NCBI GenBank assembly: GCA_036375135.1
Contig: DASUSL010000091.1
Coordinates: forward strand, 10,947 to 74,946
DNA: 64,000 bases
Direction of reading: 5' to 3'
Source: Thermoanaerobaculia bacterium
GTDB lineage: Bacteria > Acidobacteriota > Thermoanaerobaculia > Gp7-AA8
The notes below the pieces were generated by a model. That model worked only from the letters and a program-made list of their open reading frames with translations, had not been told where the DNA came from and did no database searches. Position numbers and translations under genes: made by a program. Shown here piece by piece: positions 13,387-51,723 of the stretch; the first letter of the stretch is position 1; each line of letters begins with the position of its first letter.

Positions 13387-13420
13387 AGCGCCTGTCCTCC
13401 ACTAAACTGCGCGCGCCGCG

Positions 13421-14131
13421 ATGAAGAACCTCGGCCTCAAGCTCGTCTCGCTGCTGCTGGCGTGCATCCTCTGGTGGTACGTGTCGCTGCCGCGGCGCGA
13501 GGAAGTGCGCGAGCGCGTGGTCACGGCGTCGCTGGCGCTGGTGGGGATGCCGTCCTATCTCGTCATCACCACGCCCGACATCCCCAGCAGCGTGGCCGTG
13601 CGCGTGCGCGGGCGGAAGACCGACCTGCGCGGCGTGGCCTCGCAGACCCTCGAGGCGTCCGCCGACCTGAGCGCCATCACCACGCCGGGTGAAGTCGAGA
13701 TCACGATCCGCGCGCGGCACATCAACGTGCCGGACGAGATCGAGGTCATCTCCATCGAGCCGTCGAAGGTGCGCTTCCGCGTGGAGCAGTTGCGCCAGCG
13801 CGCGGTGCCGATCCGGCCGTTCCTCGACGGCGGCGTGCCGGCGGGCTTCATCATCGGACAAGCCACCGCGGAGCCGCCGCTGGCGCTGGTGTCCGGGCCG
13901 GCGTCGCAGATCATGAAACTGGCCGAGGTCACGACGGAGCGCATTATCATGACCGGCCGCACGGAGACGTTCGTGCAGAGCGCGGGCGTCATCGCCGACT
14001 CACCGCTGGTGCGGATCATCTCGCCGCTCACCACACAGATCACGGTTCCGGTGCTCGCGGAGGTCGGACCCGAGCCGCCCACGGACACGAGCGGTACGAC
14101 CGGCACCACGGAGACCACGAGCACACAATGA
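13421..14131 (+). CDS. cdaR: CdaA regulatory protein CdaR (YbbR-like domains)
   Basis: N-terminal TM helix followed by YbbR-like repeats. Position between cdaA and glmM is the conserved cdaA-cdaR-glmM arrangement. Confidence 0.75.
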   Translation: MKNLGLKLVSLLLACILWWYVSLPRREEVRERVVTASLALVGMPSYLVITTPDIPSSVAVRVRGRKTDLRGVASQTLEASADLSAITTPGEVEITIRARHINVPDEIEVISIEPSKVRFRVEQLRQRAVPIRPFLDGGVPAGFIIGQATAEPPLALVSGPASQIMKLAEVTTERIIMTGRTETFVQSAGVIADSPLVRIISPLTTQITVPVLAEVGPEPPTDTSGTTGTTETTSTQ

Positions 14132-15441
14132 GACAACTCTTCGGCACTGACGGCATCCGCGGCAAGGCGCGGCAATATCCTCTCGACGAGCCGACGCTGA
14201 TCCGCCTCGGATACGCCCTCGCCAAACGCTTCCCCGGCAAAGTCCTCCTCGGCCGCGACACGCGCGAGTCGGGAGCGATGATCGCCGGCGCACTCGCCGC
14301 CGGCCTGAAGGCAGGCGGCGCGCAACCGGTGGCGGTCGGCGTCATCCCCACGCCCGGCATCGCCTGGCTCTGCAGAACGACAGACGATGCCGTCGCGGCG
14401 ATCTCGATCTCCGCTTCGCACAATCCGTGGGAAGACAACGGCGTGAAGATCTTCGGTCACGACGGGATGAAGCTGCCCGATCGCATCGAGCTGGAGATCG
14501 AGCAGGACCTCGAGCGCGTCGACATCGGCGCGCAGACGTCGACCGAGAACGACGAGGAATCGCCGGAGCTCATCGAAGCGTACGAGCGCTTTCTCATTTC
14601 AGGGATCCCGCCCGCGGCGCTGAAGGGACGCAAGGTCGTGCTCGACGTCGGTCACGGAGCCGCCTATCGAATCGCGCCGGAAGTGTTCCGCCGCGTCGGC
14701 GCGGACGTCGTGGTCATCCACGACGCGCCGGACGGCCGCAACATCAACGAGAACGCCGGCGCGATGCATCCGGAGCGGCTGGCCGAGGTGGTGGTGGAGC
14801 AGCAGGCGGACTACGGCGTGGCCTTCGACGGCGACGCCGACCGCGCCATCTTCGCCGACGACGCGGGAAAGATCCGCGACGGCGACGAGATCATCTATCT
14901 CTGGGCGAAACACCTGAAACTGCCGCTGGTCGTGACGACGGTGATGTCGAACTTCGGCTTCGAAAAACAGCTCCAGGCCGACGGCATCGAGCTGCTGCGC
15001 GCACAGGTGGGCGACAAGTACGTCCTCGAGCAGATGCTCGAGCGCGACGCGCTCCTCGGCGGCGAGCAGTCCGGCCACATCATCGACCGCACCGTGCACA
15101 CCACCGGCGACGGCATCCACACCGCGGTCGTCTTCGGCAGCATCCTCGCGGAAATGGGACAGCCGTTCTCGAAGCTGCACACGTTCGACCCGATGCCGCA
15201 GCTTCTGCTGAACGAGAAGGTGGCCTCCAAGCCGCCGCTCGAGTCGCTGCCGAAGTATCAGGAGGCGCACGCCGCCGCACTGCGCCAGCTCGATGGGAAG
15301 GGACGCATTCTCGTGCGCTACTCGGGAACGGAGAATCTCGTCCGCGTGATGGTGGAAGGGGAGGACGACACGCTGATCCGGCGCATTGCGGAGGAGCTGC
15401 GCGGCGTGCTCAAAGAGGAAATCGATGACGTGTCATCCTGA
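14128..15441 (+). CDS. glmM: phosphoglucosamine mutase
   Basis: MRQLFGTDGIRGKA ... SASHNP (phospho-Ser loop) ...; 437 aa full-length GlmM. Confidence 0.95.
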   Translation: MRQLFGTDGIRGKARQYPLDEPTLIRLGYALAKRFPGKVLLGRDTRESGAMIAGALAAGLKAGGAQPVAVGVIPTPGIAWLCRTTDDAVAAISISASHNPWEDNGVKIFGHDGMKLPDRIELEIEQDLERVDIGAQTSTENDEESPELIEAYERFLISGIPPAALKGRKVVLDVGHGAAYRIAPEVFRRVGADVVVIHDAPDGRNINENAGAMHPERLAEVVVEQQADYGVAFDGDADRAIFADDAGKIRDGDEIIYLWAKHLKLPLVVTTVMSNFGFEKQLQADGIELLRAQVGDKYVLEQMLERDALLGGEQSGHIIDRTVHTTGDGIHTAVVFGSILAEMGQPFSKLHTFDPMPQLLLNEKVASKPPLESLPKYQEAHAAALRQLDGKGRILVRYSGTENLVRVMVEGEDDTLIRRIAEELRGVLKEEIDDVSS

Positions 15442-15531
15442 GGCGTGTAGACGCCGAAGGATCCCCTGCCGACGGAGCGGGCATCGGTTTCAGCACGCGG
15501 TCCTTCGCCCTCTACGGAGCTCGGGATGACA
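15436..15531. mobile_element. MITE-like element (family GTGTCATCCTGAG...CTCAGGATGACAC), about 100 bp, with terminal inverted repeats
   Basis: GTGTCATCCTGAGGCGTGTAGACGCCGAAGGA ... TCCTTCGCCCTCTACGGAGCTCGGGATGACAC. A second copy lies inside carB (19151-19258). The left end contains the glmM stop; the right end contains the ATG of the SDR. Confidence 0.8.
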
Positions 15532-16281
15532 CCGCGGTGGACGCTCGCAGGGAAAACCGCCCTCGTCACCGGCGCGACGAAAGGCATCGGCCTGGCCATC
15601 GCGAACGAACTGGCGGCCTTCGGCGCTGACGTCATCGGCGTGGCACGTGGCAATGTGGCGACGGGCTTCAGCCCTTCGCGTGACGGGCTGAAGCCCGTCA
15701 CCACATTCGCAGCCGACATGAGCAGGCCGGAAGACCGCCGGCGCCTCATCGAAGGAATCGACAGACTCGACATCCTCGTCAACAACGCCGGCACGAACAT
15801 CCGCAGGAAGGCGATCGATTACGAGGACGGCGAATACGAGCGCATCCGCGAGCTCAATCAGGATGCGGTGCTTGATCTCTGCCGTCTCGCGCATCCGCTC
15901 CTGAAGCAATCGGGCGAGGCGAGCATCGTCAACATCGTCTCCGTGGCCGCCTTCCGCCACCTCGGCACCGGCATCCCGTACGCCATGACCAAGGCGGCCG
16001 TGGCGCACATGACCCGCGGCCTCGCGGCGGAGTGGGCGGCGGACGGGATCCGCGTCAATGCCGTGGCGCCGTGGTACATCCGCACGCCGCTGGCGCAGCC
16101 GGTGCTCGACGACCCGTTGCGTCTGGCGAAAATCCTCGAGACCACGCCATTGAAGCGCGTCGGCGAGCCGGAGGAAGTCGCGTCGCTCGTTGCATTTCTC
16201 TGCATGTCGGCCGCGTCTTACATCACCGGACAGTGCATTGCGGTCGATGGCGGATTCAGCGTTGCCGGTGTTTTCCAATAA
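15526..16281 (+). CDS. SDR family oxidoreductase
   Basis: [12 protein letters not shown] and YAMTKAA motifs. Carries a 15-aa in-frame insertion ([15 protein letters not shown]) encoded by the GGGCTTCAGCCC palindromic element at 15661-15698. Confidence 0.85.
15661..15698. repeat. palindromic element GGGCTTCAGCCC ... GGGCTGAAGCCC (F2 family), in-frame within the SDR gene
   Basis: ACGGGCTTCAGCCCttcgcgtgACGGGCTGAAGCCCGT. The same core occurs at 26765, 41085/41271 and 54272. Confidence 0.8.
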
Positions 16282-16353: not shown

Positions 16354-17377
16354 ATGGCGAAGGCGCAGGGGAAGAAGGCGGTCGCCGCCGCCAGTGGTAA
16401 GAGTGCGGCAAAGAAGGTCGCGGCGAAGCTCAAGAGCGCGGCCAAAGCGGTGAAAAAAAAGGTCGCGCCGAAAAAGGCCGCCGCGCCCGCAGCGAAGCCA
16501 GCCGCGAAAAAGCCCGCGCCCAAAGTCGCGGCCAAGCCCGTCAAGCCTGCCAAGCCCGTAAAGCCCGCCCCGAAGCCGGCACCGAAGGCCGCGGCCAAAC
16601 CGGCGCCGAAGCCGGCACCGAAACCCGCGCCGAAAGCCAAGGCTCCCGCGAAACCGGTCGCGAAGGCGGCCAAGGCGGCGGTCAAGGCCGTGAAGAAAGT
16701 CGCGGCCAGGGTTGCGCCGAAGGCAGCCGAGAAGCCTGCTCTCAAGCCGAAAGCGGTCAAGCCGGCGCCGCCCACTCCCGCGCCGGTCGCGCCGAACGTT
16801 CCCGCCGTGCCGAAGCCGGCGCCCGCGCCGGAGCCGGAGAAGGCCAAGCGCGGCCGCCGCGCGCGTCCGCGCGTGATCTCCAGCGGAGCGCCCGCCGCGT
16901 CGTGGCTGTCGTCCGAGAAGCCGCGTCCGGCGTCGTTCATCGCCGCGCCCGCGCGTGCCGAGGCGCCGAGCGCCGTGGCCGCGCCGCCGGCGTCGTCGGA
17001 TCGACTCATCCGCGCCGAAGATCTGGACCATTCCGCCCTGCGCACCGTGCCGGTGCGCATCGACGTCGAGCAGGGGGCGGGACGCTTCTACGTCATCGCC
17101 AATCCGATGGAAGTCTCCGTGCGCGTCGGTGAAGGGATCGAGTGGGATTTCCGCTACATCGGCGGCGCCGACGTCAACGTCGACGAGATCGTCATCGAGC
17201 TCGAGAAGCCGTCGCCGTTCACGCAGAGCGTCTTCCGTACGCGCAAGCCGGGCGGCGCGCGTCCGCATCGCCAGCTCTCCGGCGCCGCGGTGGCGTCCGC
17301 GGCGGGCAAGCGCATTCAGTACACGGTGCGCGCGATGACGCCGTTCAAGACAGAGCTGGCGAACACGAAGGTCTGGG

Positions 17378-17394
<17 letters not shown>
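16354..17394 (+). CDS. histone H1-like Lys/Ala/Pro-rich protein fused to a C-terminal domain of unknown function
   Basis: N-terminal roughly 150 aa are AKKAAPKPAAKP repeats (AlgP/Hc1/BpH1-like), followed by about 180 aa of non-repetitive sequence ([28 protein letters not shown]...). Confidence 0.65.
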
Positions 17395-20662
<3,268 letters not shown>

Positions 20663-25779: not shown

Positions 25780-27233
25780 CGCTCACCGAACTGCTCAGAG
25801 ACGTCCCCGTGCGCGAAGTGCGTGGCGACCGCAACGTCGACGTGACGTCGGTGACGCCCGACTCGCGCCTCGTCACCGAGGGTGCGCTGTTCGTGGCCAT
25901 TCCGGGCACGGCCAAAGATGGCGCGGCCTTCATCCCGATGGCGCGTGAGAAAGGCGCGGCGGTGATCGTCGGACAGAGCGGCGACGTCGACGTGCTCGTC
26001 GACGACGCGCGCGCCGCCCTCGCACTCATCGCCGCCAACTTCTACGGCCGTCCGGCCGACAAGCTCTCGCTCGTCGGCGTGACCGGCACCTCCGGCAAGA
26101 CCACCACCACGCGCATGATCGAGTCGGTCTTCGACGCGGGCAGCGAGCCGGTCGGCCTCATCGGCACGATCGAGTACCGCGCCGGCGACGAGCGCCTCAA
26201 CGCCGACCGCACCACGCCCGACGCCGTCGTGCTGCAGGAGTGGTTCGCCAAGATGGTCGACGCCGGCGTGCGGCACGCGGTGATGGAAGTGTCGTCGCAC
26301 GCCCTCGCGCTCAAGCGCACGCACGGCGTGCACTTCGCGGCGGCGGTCTTCACCAACCTCTCCCGCGAGCACTTCGACTTTCACAAGGACTTCGAGGACT
26401 ACTTCGCCGCGAAGCGCATCCTCTTCGACCAGATCGACCGCACGCGGCAGACCGCGGTGGTGAACGTCGACGACCAGTACGGCCGGCGCCTGGCGAACGA
26501 GCTCGGCGCGAGCGCGATGACGTTCGGCCGCGAAGGCGACATCCGTCCGTCGGTCGACATTTCGGTGGACGGCATCCGCGGCACGATCCACACGCCGCAC
26601 GGCGACGTGCGCATGGAGTCGCCGCTCCTCGGGCAGCCGAATCTGTACAACTGGCTCGGCGCCATCGGCGCGGCGCTGGTCGTCGGCGTCCCGATCGCAC
26701 AGATCGAGGCGGGCATCCGCAACCTCGAGTCGGTGCGCGGCCGCTTCGAGCGCGTGAATGTGGGACGGGCTTCAGCCCGCCCGGAGCCGACGGTCATCGT
26801 CGACTACGCGCACAAGCCCGACGCCATCGAGAAGCTCCTGCACGCCGTGCGCGACATCGCCGGTGAGCGGAAGGTCTCCATCGTCTTCGGCTGCGGCGGC
26901 GATCGCGACCGCGGCAAGCGTCCGGAGATGGGGGCCATCGCCTCGCGGCTCGCGGACCGCGTGATCGTCACCAGCGACAACCCGCGCACCGAGGATCCGA
27001 AAGCGATCATCGAGGAGATCCTGAAAGGGATCGACGGCAGCAACACCATCGCCATCGCCGACCGGCGCGAGGCCATCGAGCGGACCATCGCCGAGGCGGG
27101 GGACGACGAGGTCATCGTCATCGCCGGCAAGGGTCACGAGACCTACCAGTACGTCGGAGACCGGGTCATCCACTTCGACGACAAAGAAGAAGCAGAATAC
27201 GCACTCAAAAAGCGTTACGAAAAACGATCTTGA
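25776..27233 (+). CDS. murE: UDP-N-acetylmuramoyl-L-alanyl-D-glutamate--2,6-diaminopimelate ligase
   Basis: Mur ligase domains with GTSGKTTT; the DNPR motif suggests meso-DAP specificity. Contains an in-frame F2 element (GRASARPEP) at 26763-26786. Confidence 0.9.
   Translation: MTLTELLRDVPVREVRGDRNVDVTSVTPDSRLVTEGALFVAIPGTAKDGAAFIPMAREKGAAVIVGQSGDVDVLVDDARAALALIAANFYGRPADKLSLVGVTGTSGKTTTTRMIESVFDAGSEPVGLIGTIEYRAGDERLNADRTTPDAVVLQEWFAKMVDAGVRHAVMEVSSHALALKRTHGVHFAAAVFTNLSREHFDFHKDFEDYFAAKRILFDQIDRTRQTAVVNVDDQYGRRLANELGASAMTFGREGDIRPSVDISVDGIRGTIHTPHGDVRMESPLLGQPNLYNWLGAIGAALVVGVPIAQIEAGIRNLESVRGRFERVNVGRASARPEPTVIVDYAHKPDAIEKLLHAVRDIAGERKVSIVFGCGGDRDRGKRPEMGAIASRLADRVIVTSDNPRTEDPKAIIEEILKGIDGSNTIAIADRREAIERTIAEAGDDEVIVIAGKGHETYQYVGDRVIHFDDKEEAEYALKKRYEKRS
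26763..26786. repeat. single F2 palindrome GACGGGCTTCAGCCCGCCCGG inside murE
   Basis: Same GGGCTTCAGCCC core as in the SDR and sulfotransferase copies. Confidence 0.7.
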
Positions 27234-40783: not shown

Positions 40784-42015
40784 CGCAGCCGCTCGAGCCG
40801 CTGCTGTTCGCGGGCGATGTTGTGCGCATCGACCGCGTCCGCGGTCATGTCGTCGCGCGTCGTGTAAGGCTCTTCGAAAGAGCGGAGGATGTCCGGCGCT
40901 TCCTCTTCGCGGATGCCGGCGTCGTAGCCAAGGAGGCGCATCTCGGGGAAGCAGGTCGCTTCGACGAAGCGGATCACGTCCCGCGGCAGCACGTCGCGAT
41001 ACGCTCCCACCGACTCACGCGAGACGCCCCGCCGCTCGCCGTGCGACGAGTTGCCACCCCACGACATGCTCTCCCCAATGTGGGGCGTGGCTTCAGCCCG
41101 CCCCTCGGGCGGGGTGGGGGGCACCGGGATAGGCGGGACCGGGGTGGGCGGCACCGGGATAGGCGGGACCGGGGTGGGCGGCACCGGGCCGGGCGGCACC
41201 GGGGTGGGCGGCACCGGGATGGCCGGCACCGGGCCGGACGGCACCGGGCCGGCCGGCACCGGGGTGGGCGGGCTGAAGCCGCGCCCCACATTGGCCAGCA
41301 GTCGTTGCAGTTCGGCCGCGGGGGCTTGCGTGAGGTCTTCGTAGCGCAGCCAGTGAAAACCCGCGCGTCCTTCGAGCTCGAGCGCGAAGGCGACGCTCTT
41401 GCGCCACTGCCGGATGTTGAAGAGCGTCGGCTTCAGCGCGCCGCCGAACTCCGGGCCGCGGCCGTGATTGAGCGACGCCAGCACGTCGCGCGGATCGCGC
41501 ACGATCAGCGCGCACGACACACCCGCGTCGAGAAACGCGGGGAGAAACTCCTCGCACGTCGTCTCCTTCGCCCCGGCCACCGGCGCGTCGCGGCGCGCCA
41601 GCCCGCGCCAGAGCGCGGTCATCATCGGCACGAACGGAGCGTCGGTGAGTGCGGCGTCCGTCTCCTCGCGCGTGAAGCGCGTGTACTGGCCGGAGTAGGT
41701 CTCCATCCGCGCGAAGAGCGCACGCGCGCGCTCGCGGTCCAGCGTGTAGTCGCGCAGGAACGCCGTGAAGTCGGCGGGCGTGTAGCGCGTTTCGCCGAAG
41801 AGGTGGCCGAGCGGGTAGCGCGCGTCTTCTTCGCCGAGCGTGCGCAGAAAGTCGCGCTTCGCCTCGACGAACAGCAGCGGCGCGGGCTGGGAAAGGATCG
41901 TCAGTGAAGGCTGTGCGTCGAGCAGCTTTTCGAGAAGCGTCGTTCCCGAGCGCTGCATGCCGGTGATGAACATCCGGCGCGAATGATAGGGCATGGTAGG
42001 ATGCGCGGCCCTCAT
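40780..42015 (-). CDS. sulfotransferase-domain protein carrying an in-frame Pro-rich pentapeptide repeat insertion
   Basis: [17 protein letters not shown] is the PAPS 5'-phosphosulfate-binding loop; an RDPRD region follows. A 73-aa insertion (GRGFSPP[TPVPx]n...[13 protein letters not shown]) is encoded by the composite repeat 41075-41294. The start may be an internal ATG (MPYHS, rc 41992-41994). Confidence 0.75.
41075..41294. mobile_element. composite MITE-like element: about 30-bp terminal inverted repeats containing the F2 GGCTTCAGCCC core, flanking ten 15-bp tandem repeats (GGCACCGGGGTGGGC)
   Basis: Left CCAATGTGGGGCGTGGCTTCAGCCCGCCCC; right GGGCGGGCTGAAGCCGCGCCCCACATTGG (one mismatch to the rc of the left arm). 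The internal 150 bp is 10 x 15 bp, read as PxVPx pentapeptides on the minus strand. Confidence 0.8.
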
Positions 42016-50172: not shown

Positions 50173-51723
50173 TCACTCCCACTCGATCGTGCCGGGTGGT
50201 TTCGAGGAAATGTCGTAAACGACGCGATTGATGCCCCGCACCTCGTTCACGATGCGGCGCGCCATGCGGTCGAGCAGGTCGTGCGGCATGCGGTACCAGT
50301 CGGCGGTCATGAAGTCAGTCGTGGTCACGGCGCGGATCGCGCACACATTCTCGTACGTGCGCTCGTCGCCCATCACGCCGACGCTCTTCACCGGCAGCAG
50401 CACCGCAAACGCCTGCGCGATCTCGCGATAGAGGCCGGCGTTGCGGATCTCGTCGATGACGATCTCGTCGGCGTTCTGCAGCACTTCCACGCGCGCGGCG
50501 TTCACCTCGCCGAGGATGCGCACGGCCAGGCCGGGGCCGGGGAAGGGATGGCGCCAGACGAATTCCTCTTCCAGCCCGAGCTCGATGCCGAGGCGGCGCA
50601 CTTCGTCCTTGAACAGCTCGCGCACCGGCTCGATGAGCTTCAGCCCCATCTTCTCCGGCAGCCCGCCGACGTTGTGATGCGTCTTGATGACCGCGGACGG
50701 ACCTTTGATGGACACGGACTCGATCACGTCGGGGTAGAGCGTCCCCTGGACGAGGAACTCCACGTCCTGGATCCGCTTCGCTTCCTCTTCGAAGATGACG
50801 ATGAACTCGTTGCCGATGCGCTTGCGCTTGACCTCGGGATCCTCGATGCCGGCCAGTTTCGCGTAGAAGCGCTCGCGCGCGTCGACCTGCACGAAGTGCA
50901 GCCCGAGGCGGTCGCTGAGCCGGGAGCCGACCTGCACGGCCTCGTGCTTCCGCAGCACGCCGTTGTCGACGAAGATGGCCGTGAGCTGATCGCCGATGGC
51001 CTCGGCCACGAGCAGCGCGGCGACGGTGGAGTCGACGCCGCCGCTCACGGCGACGATGGTTTTGCGGTCGCCGACCTGCTGGCGGATCTCTTCGACCTTG
51101 CGGCGGCGGAAGTCGCCGAGGTCCCACGTCGGCTGGCAGCCGGCGATGTCGAAGAGGAAGTTCTTCAGGATCTGTCCGCCCGCCTCGGTGTGCGTGACCT
51201 CGGGATGGAACTGGATGCCGTAGCAGCGGCGCTCCGCGTTCTCGAACGCGGCCACGGGCGCGCTGGCGGTGGAGGCGATGGTGCGGAAGCCGGGAGGGCC
51301 GGCCAGGATGCGGTCGCCGTGGCTGGCCCACACCTGCTGTTGTTTCGGGGTGCCGGCGAAGAGCGGCGAGTCGGCGGTGACTTCGATCTCGGCGCGGCCG
51401 TACTCGCGCTCGGTCGCGGCTTCGACTCTCCCCTCGAGGAAGTAGGCCGTGAGCTGCATGCCGTAGCAGATGCCGAGGATCGGCACGCCGAGCTCGAAGA
51501 CTTCCCGCGAGCAGTACGGCGCGGCCTCGGCGTAAACCGACTGCGGACCGCCGGAGAGGACGATGGCCTTCGGGGCCAGCTCGCGGATCTTCTCGATCGG
51601 CCAGTCGCACGGATGGACGACGGAGTAGACGGCGTTCTCGCGAATCCGCCGCGCGATCAGTTGCGTGTATTGGGAACCGAAGTCGAGAACGAGGACAGTC
51701 TGCTCAGGCTGCACGGCGCGCAT
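50173..51723 (-). CDS. guaA: GMP synthase (glutamine-hydrolysing)
   Basis: N-terminal GATase ([18 protein letters not shown]), PP-loop [13 protein letters not shown]-terminal dimerisation domain ending PPGTIEWE. Confidence 0.97.

Follow-up and report, generated by a model that had tools for sequence, protein, structure and literature searches.

We have analysed a stretch of 64,000 nucleotides (the window) from a Thermoanaerobaculia bacterium of the phylum Acidobacteriota (assembly GCA_036375135.1, contig DASUSL010000091.1, positions 10,947 to 74,946 of the forward strand), in which a short palindromic repeat, here named e1, spans the junction between glmM, the gene for phosphoglucosamine mutase, and a gene for a short-chain dehydrogenase/reductase (SDR). 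The comparison of this junction with its counterparts indicates that the repeat very probably supplies both the stop codon of glmM and the start codon of the SDR gene, where the change in glmM was completed by a one-base deletion. The membership of e1 in a repeat family, the positions of the two codons, the frameshift, and the existence in relatives of alleles without the element and of alleles with the native stop were all observed directly. Coordinates below are those of the window unless another locus is named, and the loci and contigs used for comparison are cited by their L numbers.

Element e1 extends over positions 15430..15532 (+ strand, 103 bp), as delimited by its inverted repeat, its folding and its homology to a second copy in carB and to metagenome copies such as that on contig L207. 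The left terminal inverted repeat, GTGTCATCCTGAG (15430..15442, +), consists of columns that are invariant among the 12 family copies aligned, and the right one, CTCGGGATGACAC (15520..15532, +), carries a single A-to-G change relative to the family consensus. An earlier note, made from the sequence alone, had described an element of about 100 bp at 15436-15531. The element and its inverted-repeat ends are real, but the extent had been drawn short at the left, and the right end differs by one mismatch from the CTCAGGATGACAC that was given for it. The statement of the same note that the whole intergenic region is element-derived was borne out, as all 84 nt between the two genes (15442-15525) lie inside e1. 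The inverted repeat is formed by arms of 43 nt with 74% complementarity around a centre of 17 nt. As RNA the element folds at -52.5 kcal/mol (z = -3.95), with both strands reaching about -53 kcal/mol (z = -4.0 and -4.7 relative to dinucleotide shuffles), and the folding of both copies in the window beats that of shuffled sequences (z = -4 to -12). The count of an 11-mer of the repeat in the window (four against 1.26 expected) is not significant by itself, as 7 of 100 shuffles reach the same number.

The glmM gene (14128..15441, +; an open reading frame of 437 aa) was identified through homologues that are up to 96% identical, contain the four PGM_PMM domains of Pfam and are annotated as phosphoglucosamine mutase; the closest of these belong to metagenome-assembled genomes of Thermoanaerobaculia, within the Acidobacteriota. 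Its 3' end reads GAT GAC GTG TCA TCC TGA. The last three codons of the tail DDVSS (15424..15438, +), GTG TCA TCC, are repeat DNA, and the TGA (15439..15441, +) lies inside the left inverted repeat, so that the stop codon is indeed part of the element, as had been claimed. Among the 120 closest GlmM clusters, 73 stop one residue past a conserved E-I, in 57 cases with G (...EIG), and 20 finish with ..SS, ..LS or ..VS, matching TCATCC-TGA or TTATCC-TGA.

The way in which the tail was altered can be followed in the relatives. In L003, the GlmM of which is 94% identical, as well as in L087 and L009, the element is located at the same site and the native stop immediately 5' of it is kept (...EIG or ...EIR). 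More specifically, the junction of L003 reads ATC GGA TGA TC|TGTCATCC, whereas the window has ATC GAT GAC GTG TCA TCC TGA, L004 has ATC GAC GAT GTG TCA TCC TGA and L088 has ATC GAT GAA GTG TCA TCC TGA (tail DEVSS). The window, L004 and L088 thus have in common a one-base deletion relative to L003 (GGATGA to GATGA), which moves the frame past the old TGA onto the TGA of the element and changes the terminal G to DDVSS or DEVSS. In the GlmM tree, L003 and L004, which differ in deletion state, are placed as sisters. The earlier note had named the insertion as the probable cause of a remodelled C-terminus. The tail is in fact altered, but insertion alone is insufficient, considering that L003, L087 and L009 have retained the native stop; judged from the aligned junctions, the remodelling of GlmM is a matter of insertion plus a one-base deletion.

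The SDR gene (15526..16281, +; 251 aa) is an open reading frame whose orthologues carry the Pfam domains adh_short and adh_short_C2. Its start ATG (15526..15528, +) is located inside the right inverted repeat, within GGGATGACAC, and the protein begins with MTPRW. This ATG is the first ATG, GTG or TTG downstream of an in-frame TAG at 15448-50, itself also inside e1, and the TGxxxGIG (GxxxGxG) motif of the protein starts at residue 15; together these features leave no alternative later start, in agreement with the claim that the ATG of the element opens the SDR gene. A Shine-Dalgarno-like GGAG, with a putative function in initiation, is found in the right arm (15516..15519, +), 6 nt upstream of the ATG. 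In L003, L004, L009, L033, L087 and L088 the SDR likewise starts with the ATG in the right inverted repeat, and in L018, L026 and L028, where only the right repeat end is left, its ATG again is the start. Overall, the SDR presumably starts at the homologous repeat ATG in 13 loci; for L003, L004, L087 and L088, public gene calls place the beginning of the SDR at this codon. The GGAG of the window is GGGG in the junction copies of L003, L004 and L088 and GCGG in copies elsewhere, which suggests selection for a ribosome-binding site at the junction. On these grounds we infer that the SDR is initiated at the repeat ATG.

The glmM-SDR junction was extracted from about 35 loci. Close relatives have preserved the gene order folP-cdaA-ybbR-glmM-SDR-(Lys/Ala-rich protein)-carB. 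Where the element is absent, the two genes overlap or abut: the SDR ATG of L001 lies 14 nt inside glmM (MRSVRW), a TTG start overlaps the glmM stop in L013 and L014, L019 has an ATGA overlap within GGATGAC (MTDRW) and L036 has a GTGA overlap. Such overlapping or abutting genes fit translational coupling. An alignment of the GlmM C-termini and SDR N-termini showed that the gene ends of element-free relatives differ from those of the window (...NEIG and MRSVRW in L001, ...EEIG and MNRRW in L006), whereas identical ends would have spoken against the proposal of the earlier note. The aligned junctions form a series, from L001 without an element, via L003 with the element and the native TGA, to the window and L004 with the element and the deletion; L087 and L088 extend this series.

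Members of the repeat superfamily, in at least five recognisable forms, were found at the glmM-SDR junction in 15 of about 31 distinct loci. Besides the e1 type these are a copy in L009 that resembles the repeat on contig L132, the GTGTCATGCCGAGCGAAGTCGAGG form in L087, the TTATCCCGAGCG form in L022, the GTCATTCCGAGCGTAGCGAGGAAC form in L031, and the TTATCCTGAGCGnAGCGAAGGATCAG form in L008, L010 and L015. The last form supplies the glmM stop (..QGLS*) as well as the SDR ATG, and thus constitutes an independent recurrence of the situation in the window. Unrelated palindromes occupy the junction in a further six loci.

In three relatives, whole genes are found between glmM and the SDR gene or just after it. 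These encode a GH44/PKD protein in L089 (7002-9176 of that locus), and further insertions are present in L090 (6910-7161) and in L091 (7064-8284 and 9038-11884), where a DUF4062 gene and a gene for a ThsB-TIR/WD40 protein, both of which look defence-related, have been inserted. The gene insertions mark the glmM-SDR junction as a general site of genome flux.

The ends of the family, TGTCATCCTGAG and CTCAGGATGACA, are 12-13 nt long and invariant across copies. A scan of metagenomes for 12-nt ends that are 55-85 nt apart (pattern TGTCATCCTGAG-N55-85-CTCAGGATGACA) yielded at least 120 contigs with a GC content ranging from 0.34 to 0.74. Most of the listed copies also contain a box ...CGAAGCGAAGGAYC... 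that the search pattern does not require, and the copy nearest to e1 among the matches listed is on the unrelated contig L207. The related loci contain 18 end pairs, and the 64-kb window contains two copies. A comparison of the whole window with Rfam at the gathering score gave no match and a search with 15380-15580 at E values up to 10 gave chance-level matches only, which speaks against the element being a ribozyme or structured RNA of a known kind. Likewise, a Pfam scan of the three peptides encodable by the element gave no match, and in a literature search that included the DNA strings we found no description of the repeat, the string matches being unrelated primers or none. By sequence, e1, with its length of about 100 bp, is a dispersed repeat that forms a hairpin and is both non-coding and non-autonomous, and its family is widespread in soil bacteria and apparently undescribed.

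In 10 of 250 element-strand instances in metagenomes, the TGA of the end closes an upstream open reading frame of at least 200 codons, and the frame of the end ATG opens a downstream open reading frame of this size in 19 cases against 18 for the other open frame. An enrichment of the ATG frame for downstream genes was therefore rejected. Candidates for the supply of both stop and start among the metagenome copies are found on contigs L116 and L147. On these counts the supply of a stop is fairly common in the family, and the supply of both signals is uncommon, but not unique. Compensatory evolution of the arms was considered and rejected as well, because the difference between within-copy arm complementarity (0.69) and between-copy identity (0.61) is too small. 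On contigs L193 (224-715), L103, L165 and L183 several copies follow one another in tandem or are nested, and additional CTCAGGATGACA ends lie inside one element. This arrangement suggests that copies insert into or beside one another.

The second copy in the window, e2 (19152..19257, - strand, 106 bp), is located in frame inside carB (open reading frame 17378-20662), the product of which it lengthens by about 32 aa. Read in the sense of carB, it matches the first 43 nt of e1 at 93% (blastn E = 1e-12), and it forms a near-perfect hairpin of 106 nt (-80.7 kcal/mol, z = -10.5). The insertion site is between the residues that correspond to 478 and 487 of E. coli CarB, in the oligomerisation domain. 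L006, L011, L017, L025 and L032 lack the element and have a short 60-nt loop instead (ERNAxxTPLLxLKR); its absence from the orthologous loop of five relatives shows that insertion or loss has taken place. In-frame copies of the e1/e2 family are present in the carB loop of the window, L001, L003, L012 and L016, the loop of L026 and L036 contains a repeat of the GTCATTCC type, and that of L028 another palindrome. The net additions to the loop are 72, 84, 96 and 117 nt, all multiples of three. A third hotspot is the cdaA-ybbR junction, where the window has a remnant of 34 nt (...CACTAAACTGCGCG, 13387-13420). The ATGA overlap of these genes is intact in L001 and L004, and the junction holds a TTATCCCGCG palindrome in L003 (3160-3290) and L006 (3165-3295) and an e1-family copy in L087 (332-436). 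The CGCGATGA junction is present on both sides of the cdaA-ybbR inserts.

The explanation that we favour for the glmM-SDR junction would then be as follows. A repeat would have lodged at the boundary between two genes that overlap or abut in element-free relatives, bringing a TGA in one frame of its left end and an ATG in its right end. In the lineage of the window, the deletion in the last glmM codon (GGA TGA to G-A TGA C) would have taken translation beyond the native stop to the TGA of the repeat. The SDR would be initiated at the repeat ATG (MTPRW...), probably helped by the GGAG that arose 6 nt upstream inside the right arm. The changes to GlmM and the SDR were presumably near-neutral. 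A scan of e1 and its immediate surroundings revealed no promoter-like site and no U-tract terminator-like site, which makes it likely that glmM and the SDR gene are still co-transcribed.

Several observations weigh against this explanation. The window, L001, L003, L004 and L006 are roughly equidistant, at about 90% nucleotide identity, and with such near-equal distances the element-free allele of L001 could be ancestral or the result of a secondary loss. Met-Thr starts (ATGACn) are also found in orthologues with unrelated palindromes or no element (L012, L016, L019 and L023, with GTG ACA in L036), and L031 has a native ATGACG 12 nt downstream of a repeat ATG that is out of frame. As ATGACn occurs in loci without an e1-type repeat, the ATGACA of the repeat may coincide with the ancestral start rather than replace it. 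The present alignments are compatible with donation of the SDR start as well as with such a coincidence, be it by target choice or through one ancient insertion behind all these starts. The view that the SDR N-terminus and its initiation region have been remodelled, as put forward in the earlier note, holds in so far as the repeat ATG is the start, but the change is slight. Folding of a 186-nt context with ViennaRNA, both with a ribosome placed on the glmM stop and without one, paired the SDR ATG with coding sequence downstream of it, and therefore speaks neither for nor against a translational coupling mediated by the hairpin. Moreover, 95 of 124 metagenome copies are without an adjacent direct repeat and none of the direct repeats is consistent, while the longest word common to both 25-nt flanks equals that of shuffled-pair controls, so that no target-site duplication was detected in 122-124 copies. 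Finally, a mobilising enzyme, be it a transposase or a partner insertion sequence, was not found in the approximately 1.9 Mb sampled, in what was a low-power search. The search for an autonomous partner, based on end pairs 250-4000 nt apart in 1.94 Mb, returned two pairs, on L129 (1.8 kb) and L203 (295 bp). No transposase is encoded between the ends of the former pair, which represents two separate elements that flank open reading frames with MarR/GNAT-like and cupin-like translations. A tblastn search of 1.9 Mb with an approximate E. coli RayT query, which has a low sensitivity, gave weak matches only, and the two that were inspected are antisense to real genes. In the absence of a duplication and of a mobilising enzyme it is from the presence/absence patterns only that we infer that the repeat is or was mobile.

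The coincidence mentioned above could have come about through target choice. The SDR would already have started with ATG ACN overlapping the glmM stop (GGATGAC, as in L019), and the repeat, the end of which (GGATGACA) resembles this sequence, would have inserted there such that its ATG overlies the native one. We regard this as a real possibility, although not the favoured one. The MT(N)(D)RW N-termini with ATGACn in L012, L016, L019 and L023, all without an e1-type repeat, are in line with it, as are the left flank, which in all cases reads G(G)ATGAn, the occurrence of at least five subfamilies at exactly this junction (the e1, L009/L132, L087-variant, L008/L010/L015, L022 and L031 types) and the repeated hits in the carB loop and at the cdaA-ybbR ATGA junction. 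However, beyond the one complementary base described below, the 124 metagenome copies have no conserved flank or target motif, the element-free carB sites are only loosely like the repeat ends, and a survivor bias could mimic a site preference, since only insertions that keep both a stop and a start would persist. The other route to a coincident start, a single ancient insertion deep in the Thermoanaerobaculia that donated ATGACA, is somewhat unlikely. Later deletions would have left ...GGCTCAGGATGACA or GGATGAC, and elsewhere the copy would have been converted by family members or displaced. The junction copies do show graded lengths, from 103 nt in the window and L009 via 82-88 nt in L003 and L004, 58 nt in L088 and 51 nt in L033 to the right end only in L018, L028 and L026 and GGATGAC in L019, and the copies of the window, L003, L004 and L088 share the arm variants GGCG...GACGCC and CGCCCT. 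Yet the shared arm variant is also present on the unrelated contig L117 and may thus mark a subfamily and not descent in place, the copies of L009 and L087 have central regions or arms of other subfamilies, and at a GlmM identity of 73% one would expect the sequence of a neutral orthologous copy to be randomised, whereas the L009 copy is near the consensus.

It is very improbable that e1 is a native regulatory hairpin that tunes the expression of the SDR relative to glmM as an attenuator, RNase site or mRNA stabiliser. The stem is stable, and REPs (repetitive extragenic palindromic sequences) and MITEs (from 'miniature inverted-repeat transposable element') are known to affect mRNA stability (PMC3733652). 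In addition, a single stem contains the stop codon in one of its base-paired ends and the start codon in the other, and in principle a ribosome that terminates on glmM might thereby expose the SDR start; in the folding described above the ATG pairs with downstream coding sequence regardless of a ribosome on the glmM stop. The same sequence is found inside carB and on contigs of many unrelated contexts, close relatives have unrelated palindromes or nothing at the junction, and a U-tract terminator is lacking at e1. Moreover, e1 is degraded, its 74% arm complementarity contrasting with the near-perfect pairing in e2, in keeping with a passenger that is tolerated more than with a structure that is maintained. 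A secondary regulatory effect of the hairpin may nevertheless exist alongside the supply of stop and start by the repeat.

A further-reaching proposal, which we consider quite unlikely, is that the ends of the superfamily are built to be tolerated at, or even to target, the stop/start boundaries of genes. One frame of the element stops at the TGA of the left end, a second one at a TGA in the right end and the third is fully open (VILS...AQDD), while the right end has the ATG. If true, the repeat would land on ATGA-type overlaps (GGATGAC) or in protein loops and regenerate a stop, a start or an open frame. This would explain why different subfamilies recurrently occupy the glmM-SDR junction, the cdaA-ybbR junction and one loop of carB, and would make the repeat a piece of selfish DNA that is adapted to compact operons and regularly gives rise to new protein termini.

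With respect to its class, e1 is on present sequence evidence MITE-like or REPIN-like, but not a proven MITE. The small size (within about 50-800 bp), the lack of coding capacity, the terminal inverted repeats and the multiple dispersed copies are those of a MITE, and to this extent the designation 'MITE-like' in the earlier note was appropriate; a MITE proper is not established, given the lack of a target-site duplication in 122-124 copies and of a partner insertion sequence. The base beside each end is complementary in 50% of the 124 copies, mostly as T...A, so that the repeat is effectively one base longer. Two inverted units in a long hairpin, as in REP/REPIN sequences, are present (43-nt arms, almost perfect in e2), but the conserved GTAG (or CGTC) tag of those sequences is not: GTAG occurs in e1, e2 and L207 at a non-terminal position and is replaced by GAAG or GCAG in L003, L004, L009, L132, L178 and L116. 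A palindromic repeat in frame in a functional protein gene, as is typical of the Rickettsia palindromic elements (RPE), is represented by the carB copy, across length variants of 72-117 nt.

Comparable gene ends have been described in Coxiella burnetii, where copies of QMITE1 and QMITE2 overlap the 3' ends of functional genes and give the stop or a few C-terminal residues, and where enhC was joined to a QMITE2 copy through an indel (PMC5896051). Like these in form, e1 is small, non-coding, multi-copy and hairpin-forming with inverted-repeat ends, and the route to the glmM tail resembles that of enhC in that an indel links the gene to the repeat in two steps. Unlike the QMITEs, e1 has neither a duplication in 122-124 copies nor a cognate insertion sequence that we could find, and one copy also gives the start of the next gene. 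REP ends are a frequent source of stop codons, some of the REPs are located within open reading frames, and terminal inverted repeat (TIR) sequences beside tyrosine transposase (TIRYT) genes have been reported in Acidobacteria (Di Nocera et al., PMC3733652). With REP/REPIN sequences and the Acidobacterial TIR repeats (PMC3733652, PMC2817692), the latter compared by description only, e1 shares the two-arm long hairpin, the absence of target duplication and the location between co-directional genes. It differs from REP/REPIN in lacking the conserved GTAG or CGTC tag, and a RAYT or TIRYT gene was not seen in the weak search of 1.9 Mb. The RPE insert in frame (reviewed in PMC10969869). The carB copy behaves likewise, being an in-frame palindrome in a housekeeping enzyme, where it contributes about 32 aa to a surface loop and where internal deletions (L003, L016) have left the frame intact. 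In contrast to the RPE, the unit is shorter and the host belongs to the free-living soil Acidobacteriota, and an RPE that gives a stop and a start at one junction is not among the reports searched. The Correia elements of Neisseria give rise to a duplicated TA target and contain promoters as well as IHF-binding sites, whereas e1 has no promoter-like site and no visible duplication. As MITE-type repeats at gene junctions, the Correia elements (NEMIS) and ERIC are co-transcribed with and alter the expression of their neighbours (PMC3733652).

Repeat-supplied stops and repeats inside open reading frames have thus been documented before. The present case adds an under-studied phylum and an apparently undescribed family, and is made attractive by the fact that both boundaries come from one copy, by the intermediate alleles in relatives and by the repeated occupation of the site. 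The junction is a clear, not unprecedented case of selfish DNA that reshapes gene ends, and a worked example of how a selfish palindrome and a one-base deletion can replace two signals, the stop of a gene that is essential for a cell-wall precursor and the start of the gene next to it, while neither gene is inactivated. For the annotation of uncultured soil Acidobacteriota it implies that GlmM tails of the ..VSS or ..LS type, the SDR starts and the CarB inserts of 24-39 residues are repeat-derived and not lineage-specific protein features. Although abundant in metagenomes from soil and peat, the family has no match in Rfam or the literature searched. Should its preference for junctions be real, the family would serve as a useful model of mobile DNA living with tightly packed operons.

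Other repeats and one further gene in the window deserve mention. The SDR gene contains a palindrome of a different family, 56 bp long (15652-15707, AATGTGGCGACGGGCTTCAGCCC...GGGCTGAAGCCCGTCACCACATT), which is read in frame and takes the place of the segment that connects strands 2 and 3 of the Rossmann fold. L006 and L088 have this palindrome as well, L001 has a partly deleted version, and L003, L004 and L087 lack it. Sites of yet another type, GGGCTTCAGCCC, are located at 26757-26790, 41078-41291 and 50635-50646, with six matches in the window against 0.37 expected. The pair at 41078-41291 has the ends AATGTGGGGCG.GGCTTCAGCCCGCC with about 170 nt of tandem GGCACCGGG(A/C)... in between, and is located within long open reading frames of both strands. 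In L006 the glmM-SDR junction is occupied by a relative of this family. The gene that follows the SDR (16354-17394, +) encodes a protein of 346 aa without a Pfam hit on record, the N-terminal part of which (about 150 residues) consists of Lys/Ala/Pro-rich repeats (AKKVAAK..., PKPAPK...) and is histone H1-like; its position is conserved in the relatives.

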